A stretch of 35,247 nucleotides of DNA from a virus (lineage: Duplodnaviria > Heunggongvirae > Uroviricota > Caudoviricetes), in IMG/VR virus record IMGVR_UViG_2703719355_000021. One strand, written 5' to 3'. Numbering within the stretch: the first letter of the stretch is position 1; the number at the start of each line of letters is the position of its first letter. Under the pieces are notes generated by a model. It worked only from the letters and a program-made list of their open reading frames with translations. It had not been told where the DNA came from and searched no databases. A program made the translations under genes and the position numbers. Shown in pieces: positions 136 to 35,247 of this stretch.

Positions 136-276
136 TTACTGCTTACACTGTAAGAACGCCGCAAACTCCGCTCCCCAGAAGCTCATCCGTATTTCACACA
201 GCGAACCGTGCAACATCCAGATGATGAGGATTGCCGTCACGCAGAACGTGATGGCCGTAAGCGATTTTTGCGACAT
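136..276 (-). CDS. hok: Hok/Gef-family type I toxin, 46 aa small membrane peptide
   Basis: Not in ORF track (<60 aa). Translation MSQKSLTAITFCVTAILIIWMLHGSLCEIRMSFWGAEFAAFLQCKQ: one TM helix followed by SLCEIR...EFAAF, matching the conserved Hok motif (R1 Hok ...KSLCEIRYRDGHREVAAF...). AAGGAG ribosome-binding site 8 nt upstream of the ATG. Confidence 0.7.
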   Translation of the reverse strand: MSQKSLTAITFCVTAILIIWMLHGSLCEIRMSFWGAEFAAFLQCKQ

Positions 277-26605: not shown

Positions 26606-26720
26606 CGTTTACGGGATTCTGAAATCCCGTTTTTGCCTGTTTTGTGCGCGCTTCACATATCGCTGCGCGTTTTTTGCTCATTTACGGGATTTGTGAATCC
26701 CGTTTCTGTCTGTTTTTTGT
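26606..26720. repeat. two ~40 bp direct repeats, each with a palindrome (acgggatt-N5-aatcccgt), upstream of parM: candidate parC centromere/operator
   Basis: cgtttacgggattctgaaatcccgtttttgcctgtttt (about 26606) and catttacgggatttgtgaatcccgtttctgtctgtttt (about 26679), 73 bp apart; the second lies within the last codons of gene A. Confidence 0.5.
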
Positions 26721-29475
26721 TTCCACTGGTCAGGCCACCCCGCAGCAGGTCTGCTTTGCGGCGGGCGCGTTCAGTGGTTTCACTGATTCTCTGTGCGTGC
26801 TCTGCGTCGCGGATGGCGCGCAGCATGTCAGAAAGCACGGTAACGGGTGTTTTCATGGTGTTCTGGTCCTGCTGAAGTGTGGATGCCAGGCGTGCGGCGG
26901 CTTCAGGGTCTGATGCCCCCAGCTGTGCCAGATAGCTGGCGACCGGGTTATGGCGGATCTCCGTGCTGCTTACGCCATGATTACGGCTCAGGCGCTGCCA
27001 GAGCTGCGTGATTCGGCTGTCCGGGCGGGTATCCGGTTTGCGTACAATTTCAAATCCCTGCGGTGCAATGATGCTGCCGTCAACGTACAGACTGCCGCCC
27101 CGTAACAGGTGCTGCATCTGTTGTTCACCGATATGCAGGCCGAGAGATTCAGCAGACTCTCGCCATTCTTTAGCGAGTAATTCGTGGTTATCAGGCAAAG
27201 GCCGCTGCTGTTTGCGGCTCTGTGTCCAGCTCTGCATTTCATCACTGCTGTTTTTTGCCTGTTTGTCACGAAGCGAACGCATCAGCGCCCGGCGTTCGTG
27301 CCGTTTCAGTGAGCGCATCCATTCGTTCACTTCAACGCCGTCAGGGAGCTGCGGCCACGGTGCTGGCCGTTCTTCCGGCTGTTCTGTCCCGTTGTTGTCC
27401 GTTTCCTGTACACGGGGACAGTTATTGCCACGAGTCCAAGGGGCGGCAGGGCCGCCCTGAAGGTCAAAACCATTTTCGCGGGCGCTGTCTTCCGCTTCCG
27501 GTTTGCGTCTTACCAGCTTCCAGTTATCCGGATGCGTGCACACACGGGAGGATTCCCCGATGAGTGGTGACCAGATCCCGTAAATCTGTACGCTCTGTTC
27601 GCCGTAATCGTTCAGCTCATCGGCGAGGTCGTAGGCGGTGCGAATCAGGTAGTCTTTGCGTGGAACAAGTACGCCGCCCTGTTTCTCTATGTAGGTGGCA
27701 AAACATCCGGCATCAGCGGCGGCAAGAACCGCATCCATTGCGTCATCCTTCAGCCGTTGCGGGCCTTCCGGGTTGCGTGCCATCTGGCTGGCAAGGCGGC
27801 GCAGTTCACGCCATACCTGGCGGGAGGGGATGCCAAAGAACTGGAACTGGCGGACCCGGTGAAGGCGCGCCCAGCCGATGGCGCGTTCCACGCTCTCGGC
27901 CATTGATTTTCCGGTTTCGTGGTCAACGCGTGGCTTGCCCGTTTTCGGGTCGATGCCATCCACGGCGCGGCTGTCCAGGTTTTTCCCGATGTAGGTGGCA
28001 ATGTAGCTGGTTGGCGTGCCTTTTGAGCCGTCTACATACTCCGCCTTAAAGCGCGGAGTTATGTCATCGCCCAGCTCGTGACGATCTTCCTGAATGGCAA
28101 TATCGCGGGTGTGGGACACAATGGTGTCGATTTCTTCCGGATGAGCAAAGACCATCATATGCCAGTGCACGGTGCCGTCATGGTGAGGCTCCACCGTGCG
28201 GATGCCATACCAGCGCAGGCCGTCGCGGTTCAGTTTCTTGCGGACCGCCGCAAAAAACGTGTTAACCAGGTAATCGCTGGAGTCGCGCATGGTGGCCCCG
28301 TTCCATTTGGGGTTCGGATGACCGTTCTCCGTTGTTGCGTGGTATTTTGACGGGCAGGTGACGGTCAGAAACACCGCTCTGTCGCCACGGGCTTCGGCCA
28401 GAAGTTCCAGTCCCTTCATGGTGGCCATCATTTCTGCTTTACGGTGAACCGGGTTACTTACTCCCGCGTAATACACCGTCTCGAGATCAATCGTGAACCC
28501 GTCTTCATTTTCCAGCATGAAACTTTTCAGGAAATCGCGTGTTTTCTCGCGCTGTGCGCGAAACTCGCTTAACGCGTCCTGGCTCAGATAGGGTGATGTT
28601 TTTCTGGAAACCAGACAGGCGGCGCGGAGTTGTTCTTCTCTCCACTCGCAACGTAACAGCCACAGTTTGCGTTTCCACCATTCCGCACAGGTCAGGCGAA
28701 GGATTGCGCCCGGCAGCAGCTCCGTGTCCGGTTCGTTCCTCCGGTCTTTATCTGTTGTCAGTGCGTCATAATGTGGAGGCATGATGTGCAGGTGTAACGC
28801 CATGCGGGCCAGCATCTGATACGCCTTCAGCGTTACATCCATGGTCAGTTCGCCATCGGTCGCGCCAAAGCCATCGCAGAGTTTTTCGAAGGTGCTGCTG
28901 AACATCGCCGCCGTCATGGTGGCCAGCGTCTGTATCTGGTGTTTGTTGAGCTGCGGCAGGTAAAGCAAATCGTCCAGGCGTTCGCGTCCGGCAAGGGAGC
29001 GATAACCCGGTGTCAGCCAGTGTCCGTCAGTGCGATCCAGACGTTCGAATATTTTGCGCAGGGTTCCGCGTGCATAGCGTTCCGCCTGCCAGCTCTTTTT
29101 GCCTTTCCGGCGATCGGCTTCCTGTTTTTTGCGCAGGAAGGAGAGGTGGCGAATAAGCGGATCGCGCAGATAGGACGGCAGCAGGCGCAGCGAGGCCATG
29201 GCTTCATCCACCGCGCCGCGTGCCTGTTTTCTGGCGTCTCCTGCCAGTGTGATGGTTTTGTCCTGTTTTTCCTGTGCGTCCAGGCTTTTATTAATCAGGT
29301 TGCCCAGCGGCGTGGCGGAGAACGCCGCATCAGCCATTTCCTTGCGGCGCTCGTTCTCTGCCCGGTAGGCATCCAGCCAGGAGGAAAGCGCGGATTCAGG
29401 AGCGGGGATCCCCGTTCCTTCACGCCCCACTGCGTGGCGCGGTTGTTGCCAGTCCCTGATGTACTCTGCCGTCAT
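26653..29475 (-). CDS. A: replication initiation protein gpA (rolling-circle endonuclease family) with extended C-terminal region
   Basis: 940 aa; HHDGTVHWHMMVF-type HUH-like motif and P2/186 A-like central region; last gene of the early operon; about 180 aa longer than P2 A. Confidence 0.88.
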   Translation of the reverse strand: MTAEYIRDWQQPRHAVGREGTGIPAPESALSSWLDAYRAENERRKEMADAAFSATPLGNLINKSLDAQEKQDKTITLAGDARKQARGAVDEAMASLRLLPSYLRDPLIRHLSFLRKKQEADRRKGKKSWQAERYARGTLRKIFERLDRTDGHWLTPGYRSLAGRERLDDLLYLPQLNKHQIQTLATMTAAMFSSTFEKLCDGFGATDGELTMDVTLKAYQMLARMALHLHIMPPHYDALTTDKDRRNEPDTELLPGAILRLTCAEWWKRKLWLLRCEWREEQLRAACLVSRKTSPYLSQDALSEFRAQREKTRDFLKSFMLENEDGFTIDLETVYYAGVSNPVHRKAEMMATMKGLELLAEARGDRAVFLTVTCPSKYHATTENGHPNPKWNGATMRDSSDYLVNTFFAAVRKKLNRDGLRWYGIRTVEPHHDGTVHWHMMVFAHPEEIDTIVSHTRDIAIQEDRHELGDDITPRFKAEYVDGSKGTPTSYIATYIGKNLDSRAVDGIDPKTGKPRVDHETGKSMAESVERAIGWARLHRVRQFQFFGIPSRQVWRELRRLASQMARNPEGPQRLKDDAMDAVLAAADAGCFATYIEKQGGVLVPRKDYLIRTAYDLADELNDYGEQSVQIYGIWSPLIGESSRVCTHPDNWKLVRRKPEAEDSARENGFDLQGGPAAPWTRGNNCPRVQETDNNGTEQPEERPAPWPQLPDGVEVNEWMRSLKRHERRALMRSLRDKQAKNSSDEMQSWTQSRKQQRPLPDNHELLAKEWRESAESLGLHIGEQQMQHLLRGGSLYVDGSIIAPQGFEIVRKPDTRPDSRITQLWQRLSRNHGVSSTEIRHNPVASYLAQLGASDPEAAARLASTLQQDQNTMKTPVTVLSDMLRAIRDAEHAQRISETTERARRKADLLRGGLTSGNKKQTETGFTNPVNEQKTRSDM

Positions 29476-29919: not shown

Positions 29920-30150
29920 TTAATGGAGTTTGTTTTGCTGCTGGATGAGCTGCTGAAGCTCGCGCAGATCATCCGCCAGATAGCTGAAAACAGAGGCGGA
30001 ATAAATGTTTGATAGTGCGTGGCTGCGCTCATGCAGCATATTGATGTGCATGATTTGCGCGACGCGTGATGCGCGGGAAAGTCTGCGGTTGATTTCAGTC
30101 TGGATGTGACGACGCTCCGCGATAGCGCGGTGTGGTTTGCGGTTTGCCAT
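29920..30150 (-). CDS. hypothetical small basic protein (76 aa)
   Basis: AAGGGG ribosome-binding site; preceded by a structured 320 bp leader; Arg-rich N-terminus. Confidence 0.55.
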   Translation of the reverse strand: MANRKPHRAIAERRHIQTEINRRLSRASRVAQIMHINMLHERSHALSNIYSASVFSYLADDLRELQQLIQQQNKLH

Positions 30151-30329
30151 GGTGTGGCCCCTTGTGTAGTAAGTTGTGAAAACTCACCATCCAGAGCTGC
30201 GAAACTGTGGGTGGCGAGACGTACGAGGTTCGCAGTACCGGCTACACAAGAACCCGGCCCGACCGAAGTCGGCCCCGTACGCCCCGCCATAATTCTGACG
30301 CGAAAAAAACGTGGCAATACAGTACGCAC

Positions 30330-30350
30330 AAAAAAACCGCTGGCGCGGTT
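30330..30350 (-). terminator. intrinsic terminator inside the early operon (minus-strand sense)
   Basis: Minus-sense aACCGCgccaGCGGT followed by seven T; flanked by complementary cgcaca / tgtgcg. Confidence 0.55.
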
Positions 30351-30470
30351 GTGCGCTTGTGTAGTCAGCAGGCTGCGAAACCCGGCACCCGTTTTGTGAG
30401 GTGCAGCGGAAATGTAACCTGACTGATTGCGGCATGGCAAGCGGTTTTTTTGTGTGTGCATTATGATCAC

Positions 30471-31447: not shown

Positions 31448-31647
31448 CTTCGTGACTCCTGTATCTGTCGGATAAGGTTCACCTGCACCACATTCGTGGC
31501 GCAGAAGTATGTGTCGTCTATGAGATAAATGTGATGCGCGTCAGGTTGCGAACGGTGACGGTCGAGCGTTTTAATCAGCCGTTCGTCAACTTCGTATTCA
31601 CGCCCTCTGGAGGTGAAACGAATGACGGTAAATTTCTTAATTGCCAT
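31444..31647 (-). CDS. hypothetical protein (67 aa)
   Basis: Track ORF, translationally coupled to its neighbours. Confidence 0.45.
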   Translation of the reverse strand: MAIKKFTVIRFTSRGREYEVDERLIKTLDRHRSQPDAHHIYLIDDTYFCATNVVQVNLIRQIQESRR

Positions 31648-31973
31648 TACGTTTCCTTAGCCTGGAAGGCCTGCACCATTTGATGCAGGCGGTACATGGT
31701 GCGAAAGCGTGGGCGAGTTCGATTGTTGGCGTCAGAACCATTAACGCGGTTAAGCCAGCCGTAGCCATACCAGCGGTTAGCTACCCACACCTCAAAGAAG
31801 TTCTCGCCGTAATAAAAAATCGCGTTATGCCGATTCACGGTTACGAGTGAACCTTCACCCAGTAGTTGTTCTAATGCCCCATCCCATGACGCACTGAACG
31901 GGCGATAGTAAAAGCCGGTTGCGGTCCTGATGATGTGGCCCAGCAGGGCCACGATGTATTTCAGTCTCTCCAT
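31647..31973 (-). CDS. hypothetical protein (108 aa)
   Basis: Track ORF in the early operon; Trp/Tyr-rich. Confidence 0.5.
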   Translation of the reverse strand: MERLKYIVALLGHIIRTATGFYYRPFSASWDGALEQLLGEGSLVTVNRHNAIFYYGENFFEVWVANRWYGYGWLNRVNGSDANNRTRPRFRTMYRLHQMVQAFQAKET

Positions 31974-31985
31974 TGCGTTATTCCG

Positions 31986-32360
31986 TCAGTCAATGAAGCG
32001 GACTTCTTTTTTATTAGCTTCCAGAGCGGGGTTGGCGGAGATCTCCTTAATTAAGAGTTTCTCCTGGTCTTTAGACTCGGCTACGATGATGTAAATTTTG
32101 TCGTCAGCAACAGCGAGGCGAACTCGCTTGCCGATATTGGTGGCTGGCGAATTTTCTTTTGTTTGCTGTGCCCTGATAACTTCCAGCTCGGCAGCCTGTT
32201 TTTCGATGATTTCAGCGGCTTCAGTAGCAGTTTTGGCGATTATTAATGAGAGAGTTGCGGTGTCCATGTGGCCATTCGCCATGGCTTCTTTTGCTACTTC
32301 ACCTTGCATATCTGCGATTTCATTCAGGTTGTGAATAATGCCTTCTTCTTTTGCGTACAT
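31986..32360 (-). CDS. hypothetical protein (124 aa)
   Basis: Track ORF in the early operon; acidic with a helical pattern. Confidence 0.5.
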   Translation of the reverse strand: MYAKEEGIIHNLNEIADMQGEVAKEAMANGHMDTATLSLIIAKTATEAAEIIEKQAAELEVIRAQQTKENSPATNIGKRVRLAVADDKIYIIVAESKDQEKLLIKEISANPALEANKKEVRFID

Positions 32361-32453
32361 TTTTGTATCTCCGTTATTTACGTGTGCGAACGCCTCCGCG
32401 AATGCGGATGGTTTTCATGTTTTCGTATTTAATCTTGTGTTTTGTTTATGCTG

Positions 32454-32567
32454 TTATTCGCCAGTGAAAAAACGTTCAATCTTTTTTACTGAATGAATAA
32501 TTCGCATAATACCAATTGCGCAAACCACCGAAAAAATCAGAACAAGCCACGAAATAAATATATTCAT
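32454..32567 (-). CDS. candidate 37 aa hydrophobic membrane peptide
   Basis: Not in track (<60 aa). MNIFISWLVLIFSVVCAIGIMRIIHSVKKIERFFTGE; ATG overlaps the TGA of the upstream gene (ATGA coupling). Confidence 0.4.
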   Translation of the reverse strand: MNIFISWLVLIFSVVCAIGIMRIIHSVKKIERFFTGE

Positions 32568-32806
32568 GCGATATTCCCCAGCTTATACGGTTCAATATGT
32601 TCCCCGCATTCTGCTGCGCAGATAAGCTCGGAAAGTTCGTTAAGTGCATCCAGATCATCAGCGTAAAAAGCCACGTCATACAGACTCCGGATTGCCCTGG
32701 TCAATGAGTCACGGGCTGCACGTTCAGCATGAGCGCCTGATGCACTTAAGCGAAAATAAAAACGCTCAAGTGCTTTGTTAATGAGAGTTTTATATTCTTT
32801 GCCCAT
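32564..32806 (-). CDS. hypothetical protein (80 aa)
   Basis: Track ORF in the early operon. Confidence 0.5.
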   Translation of the reverse strand: MGKEYKTLINKALERFYFRLSASGAHAERAARDSLTRAIRSLYDVAFYADDLDALNELSELICAAECGEHIEPYKLGNIA

Positions 32807-32817
32807 CGCAACACCCT

Positions 32818-33096
32818 TTAATCTGCTTTCTGAATTTCAGCTTCTGAATCCATGCAGATAATTTCGATATAGGGTTCATCGCCATTAATCTGACGTGCCT
32901 TTTCAGCTTTGTTAATGATTTCGCGTACGGTCTGGTACGGAAGTTCCACAAACAATCGCGTGCCGTTCAGATAAAGGTAAGTGGCCACATCTTTTTCTGC
33001 CGGGACTACAGCATCAATAGCTGATGCGCGTAACAACAACTCACCGCGAAAATCAATAAAACGGATAAATACACCTTGTGCATGCTCTTTGGTCAT
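32818..33096 (-). CDS. hypothetical protein (about 92 aa)
   Basis: Track ORF 32818-33156; start moved to the internal Met (MTKEHAQGVF...) to avoid a long overlap. Confidence 0.45.
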   Translation of the reverse strand: MTKEHAQGVFIRFIDFRGELLLRASAIDAVVPAEKDVATYLYLNGTRLFVELPYQTVREIINKAEKARQINGDEPYIEIICMDSEAEIQKAD

Positions 33097-33106
33097 AAAG
33101 CACCTG

Positions 33107-33448
33107 TTATAAATCAGCCTGTTTAATAAAACTTTGTCCGCGAAGCAGACGATCAACCGTGCGTAGTGCTTCGTATAATGTGAAATCCTGCCCGAACTGA
33201 TTGTCGCCGCAGCTCAATGCAAAAATGCGGTTTCCGGTAAACGGATTGCGTGGGCATTTGTGAACCACGATTCCAGCTTTCTCAATCAGCCAGGCATGCT
33301 CGCCGATTTGTTTTACAGCGTGGCCATCCGGTGTTGCGTGTGTTTCGCTCAGGCTGTAGCGAGAGCTGCTGCGTGATGCACTGGTGGCGAAACGGTTAGC
33401 GTGGCGTTCAGCCCCATTACGAAAGCGTGAATTACGTTGCTGTTTCAT
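33107..33448 (-). CDS. hypothetical protein (113 aa)
   Basis: Track ORF, second gene of the early operon. Confidence 0.5.
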   Translation of the reverse strand: MKQQRNSRFRNGAERHANRFATSASRSSSRYSLSETHATPDGHAVKQIGEHAWLIEKAGIVVHKCPRNPFTGNRIFALSCGDNQFGQDFTLYEALRTVDRLLRGQSFIKQADL

Positions 33449-33466
33449 ATCAAAACTCCCTGCATC

Positions 33467-33793
33467 TCATGCAGCAAAATTAAGGAAGCCTAATCCCAAA
33501 TCTTCCGCCAGCTTCTTGGCTTTCTTAAGCCAGTGATTGCGCCAATCTTTACGCTCAGGAGGAAGCTGTTTCGTTGCGTCATAGACCATTTCGAGCCACT
33601 CATTCCAAAGGATGAGAAGACGGCGCGAACTCCCTTCCTCGCCTAAAACCTCGCGCTCAGTAGTTAGAGGGATGAGTCGACGCTCTACCAACTTTCTTAC
33701 GGCTGATTCGGTCTTACCTGTGCGGCGGGAAAACTCATCGACGGTGATGGGGTCTGGGATCTTAAACAATGCCCTCAATAGTTCTTCATTCAT
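33467..33793 (-). CDS. Cox/Apl-like small HTH regulator (putative excisionase / switch protein)
   Basis: First gene of the leftward early operon, divergent from C; internal start MNEELLRALFKIPDPITVDEFSRRTGKTESAVRKLVERRLIP (HTH); GGGAG ribosome-binding site. Assignment is by position. Confidence 0.6.
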   Translation of the reverse strand: MNEELLRALFKIPDPITVDEFSRRTGKTESAVRKLVERRLIPLTTEREVLGEEGSSRRLLILWNEWLEMVYDATKQLPPERKDWRNHWLKKAKKLAEDLGLGFLNFAA

Positions 33794-33888
33794 GTGATAA
33801 TCTCCCTGTTTGGGGTATTTCTTGCGACGGATGCCCCAAATCAAACTCATTTGTATAAACATTAATACAGACGTTGGAGAATTGCAAC

Positions 33889-34191
33889 ATGCGTATGACT
33901 ATTGGAGAGCGCATAAAAATCATGCGTGAAAGCGAGAGACTTACTAGCCTCCCGGATACAGCAAAAATGCTTGGTTTAAACCGTGATGCTCTGTGGAGAT
34001 ATGAAAGCGGTAAAACTATCCCTAATGCTGAAGTAATTGAGCAAATACTAAACAACCCCAGATTTGAGAAATATGCGTTGTGGTTTATGACTGGGAAAAT
34101 TGCGCCTGAATCCGGGCAGATAGCTCCGGCTCTCGCACACTATGGGCAAGAGCCAACGGACTTACCCCCATCCGAAAGGAAAATTGGCTAA
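33889..34191 (+). CDS. C: P2-type immunity repressor C
   Basis: TIGERIKIMRESERL...YESGKTIP...FEKYALWFMTGKIAPESGQIAPALAHYGQ aligns with P2 C (TISEKIVLMRKSEYL...YESGRSTP...FTKYTLWFMTNQIAPESGQIAPALAHFGQ); start at the ATG with a GGAGA ribosome-binding site. Confidence 0.88.
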   Translation: MRMTIGERIKIMRESERLTSLPDTAKMLGLNRDALWRYESGKTIPNAEVIEQILNNPRFEKYALWFMTGKIAPESGQIAPALAHYGQEPTDLPPSERKIG

Positions 34192-34257
34192 CCCTTTATT
34201 ATTCTTACGTTTTACAAACTGGAAATGTCTTTCCTCGTTTCACCGGAGGGCTTGCCA

Positions 34258-35247
34258 ATGGCAATTAAAGCGCTCGATGGTGGACGGTATAAAGTGGATG
34301 TTAGACCGCGTGGCCGAAGTGGACGTCGGATTCAGCGGATTTTTAAGAAAAAGGCAGATGCAGTGGCCTTTGAGCGTTATGTTCTCAGCCACATGCACGA
34401 TAAGGAATGGCTTGAAAAGCCAACAGAGCAACGTCATCTCTCAGATCTGCTTCCGTTATGGTGGGAATTGGGTGGACGCAATAAGCCATATGCTAACGGC
34501 GTTCTAACCAGGTTGAAAAAAATCATCAAAGAAATGAATGATCCAAGGGTTAGCCAGATTAATGCTCGTTTCATGGCCGCTTATCGAAGCTCCCGTTTAT
34601 CCTTGGGAGTAAAAGAGTCTACTGTTCGGCGTGATGAGTCGGATCTCGGAGGAATGTTTACACTCCTGGCAAATGCCGGGGAATTTCACGGAGAAAATCC
34701 GCTCCGCGCCCTCCCCTCTTTGAAACGAAAATCACCCGAAATGACGTATCTCACCACGGAAGAAATCGCCAAATTACTGGATGCAGTAAGCGGTGATGCC
34801 CGGCGGATTACGCTACTTTGTCTCAGTACTGGGGCGAGATGGGGAGAAGCGAAAAATCTGCGCGCGGAACACATCATCAATAATCGCGTGACGTTTAACA
34901 AAACTAAAAACGGAAAAGTTCGAATTATTCCTGTCTCTGATGAAGTTGTTAGTGAGATCAAAACAAAGAAATCCGGCCTTTTGTTTGACGTCAATTATGA
35001 GGAATATCGCAAGGTGCTTCGCAGTGTTAAGCCAGACCTACCAAAAGGACAGGCTGTACATGTTCTACGCCATACCTTTGCTGCTCACTTTATGATTAAT
35101 GGAGGAAATATACTTACGCTCCAGCGAATTATGGGGCACGCTACGATCCAGCAAACTATGACCTATGCGCACCTCGCTCCTGATTTCCTCCAGGATGCAA
35201 TTTCACTTAATCCGTTAAAAGGAGGCATCCACATTTCATCCACATAA
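34258..35247 (+). CDS. int: tyrosine integrase (P2 Int family)
   Basis: MAIKALDGGRYKVDVRPRGRSGRRIQR...LCLSTGARWGEA...HVLRHTFAAHFMINGGNILTLQRIMGH...YAHLAPDFLQDAISLNPL closely parallels P2 Int; GGAGGG ribosome-binding site. The window ends at its stop codon. Confidence 0.95.
   Translation: MAIKALDGGRYKVDVRPRGRSGRRIQRIFKKKADAVAFERYVLSHMHDKEWLEKPTEQRHLSDLLPLWWELGGRNKPYANGVLTRLKKIIKEMNDPRVSQINARFMAAYRSSRLSLGVKESTVRRDESDLGGMFTLLANAGEFHGENPLRALPSLKRKSPEMTYLTTEEIAKLLDAVSGDARRITLLCLSTGARWGEAKNLRAEHIINNRVTFNKTKNGKVRIIPVSDEVVSEIKTKKSGLLFDVNYEEYRKVLRSVKPDLPKGQAVHVLRHTFAAHFMINGGNILTLQRIMGHATIQQTMTYAHLAPDFLQDAISLNPLKGGIHISST

Follow-up and report, generated by a model that had tools for sequence, protein, structure and literature searches.

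Does a short hydrophobic open reading frame (ORF) in the early region of a P2-like prophage encode a functional protein, and what might that protein do? The ORF lies on the minus strand of a 35,247-nucleotide stretch of DNA (the window), at 32454..32567, where direct translation of its 37 codons gives MNIFISWLVLIFSVVCAIGIMRIIHSVKKIERFFTGE. An earlier note on the window had described, without giving the strand, an unannotated 37-residue hydrophobic peptide at these positions, and the ORF itself is borne out by the translation.

The whole window is a P2-family prophage; among named phages, P88 and further Xuanwuvirus (Peduoviridae) members come closest to it. The closest record is that of Escherichia coli TUM1881 (99.8% identity), in which the prophage is located between pheA and raiA. 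The peptide gene points the same way as the cox-like gene and gene A for replication, and the genes for the C-like repressor and the integrase are oriented divergently from it. The surrounding genes are as follows.

34225 to the window end, plus strand: integrase.
33889-34191, plus strand: C-like HTH repressor.
33467..33793, minus strand: cox-like gene, the first of the early operon (PHROG 11919/272, Pfam Phage_Cox and RefSeq annotation of close relatives).
33107-33448, minus strand: DUF4761 gene.
32818-33096, minus strand: gene for a PHROG-3800 protein.
32564..32806, minus strand: DUF4754 gene, encoding a soluble, helical protein of 80 residues (Pfam PF15946, E = 2.8e-54).
31986-32360, minus strand: next early gene after the spacer that follows the peptide gene.
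26653-29475, minus strand: replication endonuclease A.

On the 3′ side of the peptide gene, several small genes, including one for a MarR-type winged helix protein, precede gene A. Terminator-like matches in the early region did not rise above the expectation from shuffled sequence, and no strong intervening terminator was detected. The location in an early operon that the earlier note had assigned agrees with this P2-type gene order, in which the cox-like gene and A lie on the same strand; the designation as a Pe-type early operon rests on gene order, by analogy with the annotated maps of P2 and 186.

Two other loci of the prophage are recorded here for their own sake. Inside the early region, matches to the C4 antisense RNA (30207-30294, minus strand, 83 bits) and to the Hfq-binding small RNA isrK (30330-30404, minus strand, 64 bits), both above the Rfam gathering score, lie just upstream of the gene for a 76-residue 'derepression protein' (29920-30150). 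This group suggests a P1/P7-style antisense-controlled anti-repressor module in a P2-like prophage. At the other end of the window, a 46-residue ORF (136-276, minus strand; MSQKSLTAITFCVTAILIIWMLHGSLCEIRMSFWGAEFAAFLQCKQ) matches Pfam HOK_GEF with 29.9 bits against a threshold of 22. In the near-identical TUM1881 prophage, a Hok/Gef gene is annotated behind ogr and ahead of a TM2-domain gene and a Com/methyltransferase pair, at the raiA-side end of the prophage.

The peptide gene and its start region comprise the following features.

32454..32567, minus strand: coding sequence of a predicted small membrane protein of 37 residues (P88 gp07 family), with ATG at 32567-32565 and TAA at 32456-32454; identical to RefSeq WP_053897053.1 and under purifying selection.
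32564..32567, minus strand: ATGA stop/start overlap between the DUF4754 gene and the peptide gene, kept in 97 of 97 related loci.
32574..32579, minus strand: Shine–Dalgarno-like GGGGAA within the 3′ end of the DUF4754 gene, 6 nt upstream of the peptide ATG.

Neither the size nor the hydrophobicity of the ORF is beyond chance by itself, and its status as a gene rises above chance because of its conservation. ORFs of at least 25 residues number 82 in 5.7 kb, and the usual Kyte–Doolittle threshold of 1.6 is exceeded by 16 of the 125 short ATG-initiated ORFs (30–60 residues) in the window, among which the peptide ORF has the highest value of all.

Conservation was assessed in 97 loci, made up of the window, 80 IMG/VR contigs retrieved via DUF4754, 2 genome contigs, 3 annotated records, 10 contigs fetched via divergent peptides and 1 further viral contig. 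The DUF4754-based scan of genome contigs yielded these 2 loci only, and a viral scan with an alignment as query recovered those 80 near-identical loci again. The peptide frame is open in all 97, and the lack of a conserved frame in relatives, which the earlier note had proposed as grounds for discarding the gene, was therefore not found. The encoded peptides have 37 residues in 79 loci, 41 in 10, 45 in 7 and 59 in 1. Among 60 distinct haplotypes, pN/pS in the peptide frame is 0.31 for the 37 codons together and 0.20 for codons 1–33, as against 1.52 and 0.77 in the two other frames. Variable sites are distributed over codon positions 1, 2 and 3 as 9, 4 and 15 in the close lineage and as 24, 13 and 30 in all lineages, in both cases with the order third, first, second. 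Divergent pairs give dN/dS of 0.13–0.38 at a nearly saturated pS of 0.44–0.8, and peptide identity between lineages is 53–61%, while that of DUF4754 falls to 26–40%. Two overlapping ORFs, at 32476-32679 (minus strand) and 32493-32666 (plus strand), were considered and set aside, as they lack a coding signature.

The same data bear on the reading that the ORF arose by chance or is conserved merely through recent copying. Similar-sized ORFs are indeed frequent in the window, and hydrophobic ones are not rare. However, the frame, the start context and the protein pattern persist across the near-saturated pairs and in loci where DUF4754 identity is as low as 26%, and both off-frames carry stops in 97 of 97 loci and show pN/pS of about 0.8 or more, so that this reading is effectively refuted. 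We consider it close to certain that the 37-codon ORF is a genuine protein-coding gene.

Variation at the 3′ end of the gene is associated with homopolymers. A one-base change in a T6 run at codons 33–34 (window approximately 32466-32471) gives rise to the rare 45-residue forms found in 7 of 97 loci, in which the last four residues are replaced, and an A6 run at codons 28–29 (window approximately 32481-32486) is the source of another rare frameshift variant. In such alleles, other residues stand in for either the conserved FTGE at the C terminus or the entire tail. Their occurrence implies that the last four residues (in rarer alleles the last 8–9) are dispensable, or else that these alleles are decaying.

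The translation signals are conserved together with the frame. The TGA of the DUF4754 gene (32566-32564) shares bases with the peptide ATG, as the earlier note had claimed, and a purine-rich Shine–Dalgarno-like run precedes the ATG in every one of the 97 loci. In divergent loci, equivalent purine runs (GAGGAG, GAGGTGG, GAAGGGGAA and CAGGAGGAA) are kept even though the encoded C terminus of DUF4754 changes. A promoter scan of the peptide gene region gave no promoter of its own above chance, the score being below the shuffle expectation, and an Rfam search of 31500-34300 at E ≤ 1 found no antisense RNA or other family match.

The description of the peptide as unannotated did not stand, as records in RefSeq, P88, vB_EcoM-569R5 and UniRef all cover the gene. 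The identical RefSeq protein is named 'hypothetical protein', and the exact window sequence occurs on 153 public contigs; this allele (N2, F12, V15) is a minor variant. The P88 homologue is gp07, labelled 'membrane protein' (YP_009113050.1; 92% identity, tblastn E = 3e-14), the homologue in vB_EcoM-569R5 is labelled 'putative membrane protein', and relatives in UniRef carry the label 'Prophage membrane protein'. A phmmer search of 1.84e9 representative proteins matched the family with E = 1.9e-13. In the HMMER search of these 1.84 billion proteins, only 8 clusters (50% identity) were found, all of 22–59 residues; one is a 22-residue fragment, and the full-length clusters share the N-terminal pattern M-[SN]-[IV]-[FL]-x-S-W. 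Full-length sequence, length and synteny all place the peptide in the uncharacterised P88 gp07 or 'prophage membrane protein' family. The P88 protein has the same 37 residues in length, the same locus, the same 4-nt overlap with DUF4754 and the same Xuanwuvirus-type early operon, with no difference of substance. We found nothing in the literature, including the P88 paper, on the peptide gene, its family or the function of DUF4754.

The distribution of the gene was determined with a 421-nt query that spans the DUF4754 gene and the peptide gene and extends through the spacer as far as a hairpin described below. Of 5426 complete E. coli genomes, 1351 contain this module, O157:H7 EDL933 and ST131 strains among them, and it occurs in prophages of Salmonella, Shigella and Citrobacter as well. 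In all 40 rows sampled from the E. coli genome matches, the peptide ORF bears the annotation 'hypothetical protein', and the EDL933 copy is WP_000021655.1, 'hypothetical protein'. The family appears to be restricted to prophages of these three genera and of Escherichia. The module was also seen, at 98% protein identity, on a 226-kb contig (NZ_JBQPOM010000071.1) labelled Vagococcus sp. WN89Y, a Gram-positive genus; the label probably reflects contamination or a mislabelled assembly.

The product has a two-part architecture.

32505..32561, minus strand: predicted transmembrane helix IFISWLVLIFSVVCAIGIM, codons 3–21 (Kyte–Doolittle mean 2.72; simple-sum Hessa ΔG −3.1 kcal/mol).
32457..32504, minus strand: basic amphipathic juxtamembrane tail RIIHSVKKIERFFTGE, codons 22–37, predicted to be cytoplasmic (net charge +2).

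Residues 3–21 are the best-scoring 19-residue stretch of the peptide. Residues 22–35 are strongly amphipathic, with a helical hydrophobic moment of 0.72, and the tail follows the pattern R-I-I-x-x-[VI]-K-x-I-E-x-[FL]-F-T-G-[DE]. AlphaFold2 models one continuous helix over residues 2–35 (pLDDT 90.8). Hydrophobicity, tail charge and model together uphold the single hydrophobic helix with a basic tail that had been proposed before, and the peptide is very probably a membrane protein. The N terminus, of two residues, is uncharged as against the net charge of +2 on the tail, and this positive-inside bias, with a helix of at least 19 residues, agrees with a bitopic peptide. By the positive-inside rule, an N-out, C-in topology in the inner membrane is predicted.

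The residues that vary little or not at all are S6, W7, L10, A17, G19, I23, I24, K28, I30, E31 and F34. Variability along the peptide follows a helical periodicity of marginal significance (P = 0.04–0.08 against shuffles), with a conserved face formed by S6, L10, S/A13, A17, M21, I24, K28 and E31, and a variable face opposite. The conserved face points to helix–helix packing with a protein partner rather than to non-specific membrane damage.

The region 3′ of the ORF contains a conserved RNA element.

32361..32453, minus strand: spacer of 93 nt from the peptide stop to the next early gene, conserved to approximately 15 nt past the hairpin.
32395..32408, minus strand: 5-bp hairpin UCCGC-N4-GCGGA followed by GG, within the spacer, which travels with the DUF4754–peptide block.

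After this conserved part, relatives have different downstream genes. In nearly all of the approximately 97 loci the stem is preserved and the loop sequence varies, with 98.8% of cells paired; one compensatory pair (C-G to U-A) was found, and two G-U wobble variants can pair in the sense RNA but not in its complement. A U-run is missing from the sense strand of the hairpin, and a terminator-like score is obtained on the opposite strand only. No Rfam family matches it, and it could be a processing or stability element, a pause site or a protein-binding site.

That this spacer and hairpin accompany the ORF in almost all relatives would suit a reading in which translation itself is what matters, with ribosomes carried up to the hairpin and spacer (for example, so that Rho-dependent polarity is prevented or the fate of the RNA farther downstream is decided) and a peptide that has no function, and the tolerance of C-terminal frameshifts in 7 of 97 loci fits the same reading. 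It is nevertheless very unlikely, as selection acts on the amino acids at near-saturated synonymous divergence, and a pure spacer ORF would lose the invariant S6, W7, L10, G19, I23, I24, K28, I30 and F34.

No known family accounts for the peptide. Scans of Pfam, PHROGs, NCBIfam and PADLOC with the peptide and its 41-residue relatives gave nothing at threshold, and PADLOC-DB v2 at E ≤ 1 returned no defence or exclusion family for the 37-residue form or for two 41-residue forms. A profile search of the PDB with the peptide yielded no match to a solved structure and did not retrieve TatA.

TatA/TatE share the design of the peptide, namely a very short N-out tail, a short transmembrane helix and an amphipathic helix at the cytoplasmic face, and there is a weak local similarity (ISxW...LII; NCBIfam E = 0.004–0.11 for the 41-residue variants). 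Membership of that family was rejected on the NCBIfam scores (12.4–16.9 bits against a cut-off of 104), the lack of a Pfam MttA_Hcf106 match at E ≤ 10 and an hhalign probability of 4.5% over 13 columns; the FG hinge motif of TatA is absent from the peptide.

Hok/Gef and other type I toxins are likewise small, hydrophobic, prophage-borne peptides with a charged C-terminal part. Hok/Gef identity was rejected, as the peptide has no HOK_GEF match at E ≤ 10, in contrast to the true Hok/Gef gene near the start of the window. Type I toxins moreover have their own promoter, antisense RNA and leader; none was detected for the peptide gene, which is predicted to be translationally coupled within a polycistronic operon.

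In design, the gene resembles those of small bitopic membrane regulators. Such regulators of enterobacteria and phages include MgrB, AcrZ and SidA-type division inhibitors. Common to these and the peptide are a size of 30–50 residues, one transmembrane helix, a C terminus predicted to lie inside and a conserved face that suggests binding to a larger membrane protein. They have no sequence relationship to the peptide, which differs in being phage-borne and encoded in a lytic early operon, and the likeness is one of functional analogy only.

The gene directly upstream offers a candidate partner. AlphaFold2 models DUF4754 with helices at residues 4–48 and 52–66 (pLDDT 88.8); Foldseek against the PDB found only generic helical bundles (E > 1), and a sequence-profile search of the PDB gave designed helical repeats only. 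In all loci examined, including those fetched via the peptide alone, the peptide gene comes directly after DUF4754, and the genes that flank the pair on either side vary among relatives. Coupling alone is no proof of partnership, as ATGA overlaps are common throughout the early operon, and the constant adjacency may partly reflect shared descent because each of the two families is restricted to a single phage lineage, the same for both.

Public DUF4754 entries of 103–128 residues were inspected as possible in-frame fusions of the two proteins ('Rosetta stone' evidence), and this interpretation was rejected: they are N-terminal extensions or frameshifted read-throughs. The long entries (P0066–P0110) mostly read through into the off-frame ORF at 32476-32679 and mostly derive from single contigs; they are assembly or gene-calling artefacts.

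On these grounds we propose the following mechanism. Translation would start at the ATGA, either by ribosomes that finish DUF4754 or by ribosomes recruited via the purine run 6 nt upstream. The peptide would be made only upon derepression of the early operon, by infection or induction. Its product would be a bitopic inner-membrane protein with a periplasmic N terminus of two residues, a 19-residue helix across the membrane and the basic amphipathic helix (residues 22–35) lying at the cytoplasmic face. There it would act through specific helix–helix contacts in a non-essential, accessory early function. Its partner would most probably be DUF4754, which the peptide may anchor to the membrane or with which it may act jointly on a host membrane protein. 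We give the proposal as a whole, that is, an early-made inner-membrane peptide acting via helix contacts and probably with DUF4754, a probability of roughly 45%. The component that joins the action of the peptide to DUF4754 is, taken separately, somewhat more doubtful than that.

The evidence from recombination runs against a close partnership. Two loci (L086 and L087) have an identical peptide gene and downstream spacer, yet the identity of their DUF4754 alleles is only 42%, and DUF4754 of the window type is found with both the 37-residue and the 41-residue peptide types. Such free reassortment of alleles argues against a tightly co-evolving interface. The identity between the two loci begins approximately 5 nt before the ATG (locus position about 5001), which marks a recombination joint at the gene boundary. 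In the second of them, genes for a Mu-type transposase and MuB take the place of int, C and cox.

Reassortment, with a joint at the ATGA, favours a reading in which the peptide is a stand-alone membrane effector (a toxin, a viroporin-like pore, a block of division, of transport or of another host membrane machine, or an agent of exclusion during lytic growth) and DUF4754 a mere neighbour. Better conservation of the peptide than of DUF4754 across lineages agrees with such a role, and a short N-out helix with a basic tail is the design of many small toxins and membrane modulators. The map position is also suggestive: accessory and host-directed genes, fil and dhr in phage 186 and orf78 and B in P2, occupy a position equivalent to that of the peptide gene, after cox/apl and before the RNA structure that closes the first early block. 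The structures at that position in P2 and 186 are classical U-run terminators of unrelated sequence, in contrast to the P88-type hairpin with its lack of a sense-strand U-run. Homology to 186 Fil, for which similarity by eye (IIRIVHF versus IMRIIHS) had given a lead, was rejected at an hhalign probability of 0.5% over 8 columns; unlike the peptide, Fil has no membrane-spanning hydrophobic stretch.

This Fil result tells against the stand-alone effector, as do the lack of a match to Hok/Gef or any other Pfam, PADLOC or PHROG family and the lack of an antisense RNA, an Rfam match or an above-chance promoter of its own. The peptide gene, moreover, was never found apart from DUF4754. As for exclusion by a resting prophage, the gene lies in an operon that is expected to be under repressor control; superinfection exclusion of the lysogen type thus appears unlikely, because repression would silence the operon in lysogens and nothing points to a separate promoter. 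By contrast, old, tin and fun, the exclusion genes known from P2, have their own transcription units. Overall, we regard a stand-alone effector as unlikely, though a serious competitor to the proposed helix-contact peptide with DUF4754 as probable partner.

A more ambitious version of the proposal takes in the hairpin as well. DUF4754, the peptide and the hairpin might together form a fixed three-part cassette, a previously unrecognised two-component, membrane-targeted device for host takeover or counter-defence, in which the peptide would recruit DUF4754 to a target in the inner membrane and the 3′ end or the stability of the first early transcript would be set by the hairpin. We consider this version improbable; if true, such a device would be present in roughly one in four complete E. 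coli genomes.

The peptide is widespread, under selection and already recorded, and it represents one more conserved hypothetical small phage membrane protein. Small membrane proteins are an under-studied group, and no long-standing question hangs on this gene. Knowledge of what the DUF4754–peptide pair does would supply a missing piece of the early programme of a very common group of P2-like prophages.
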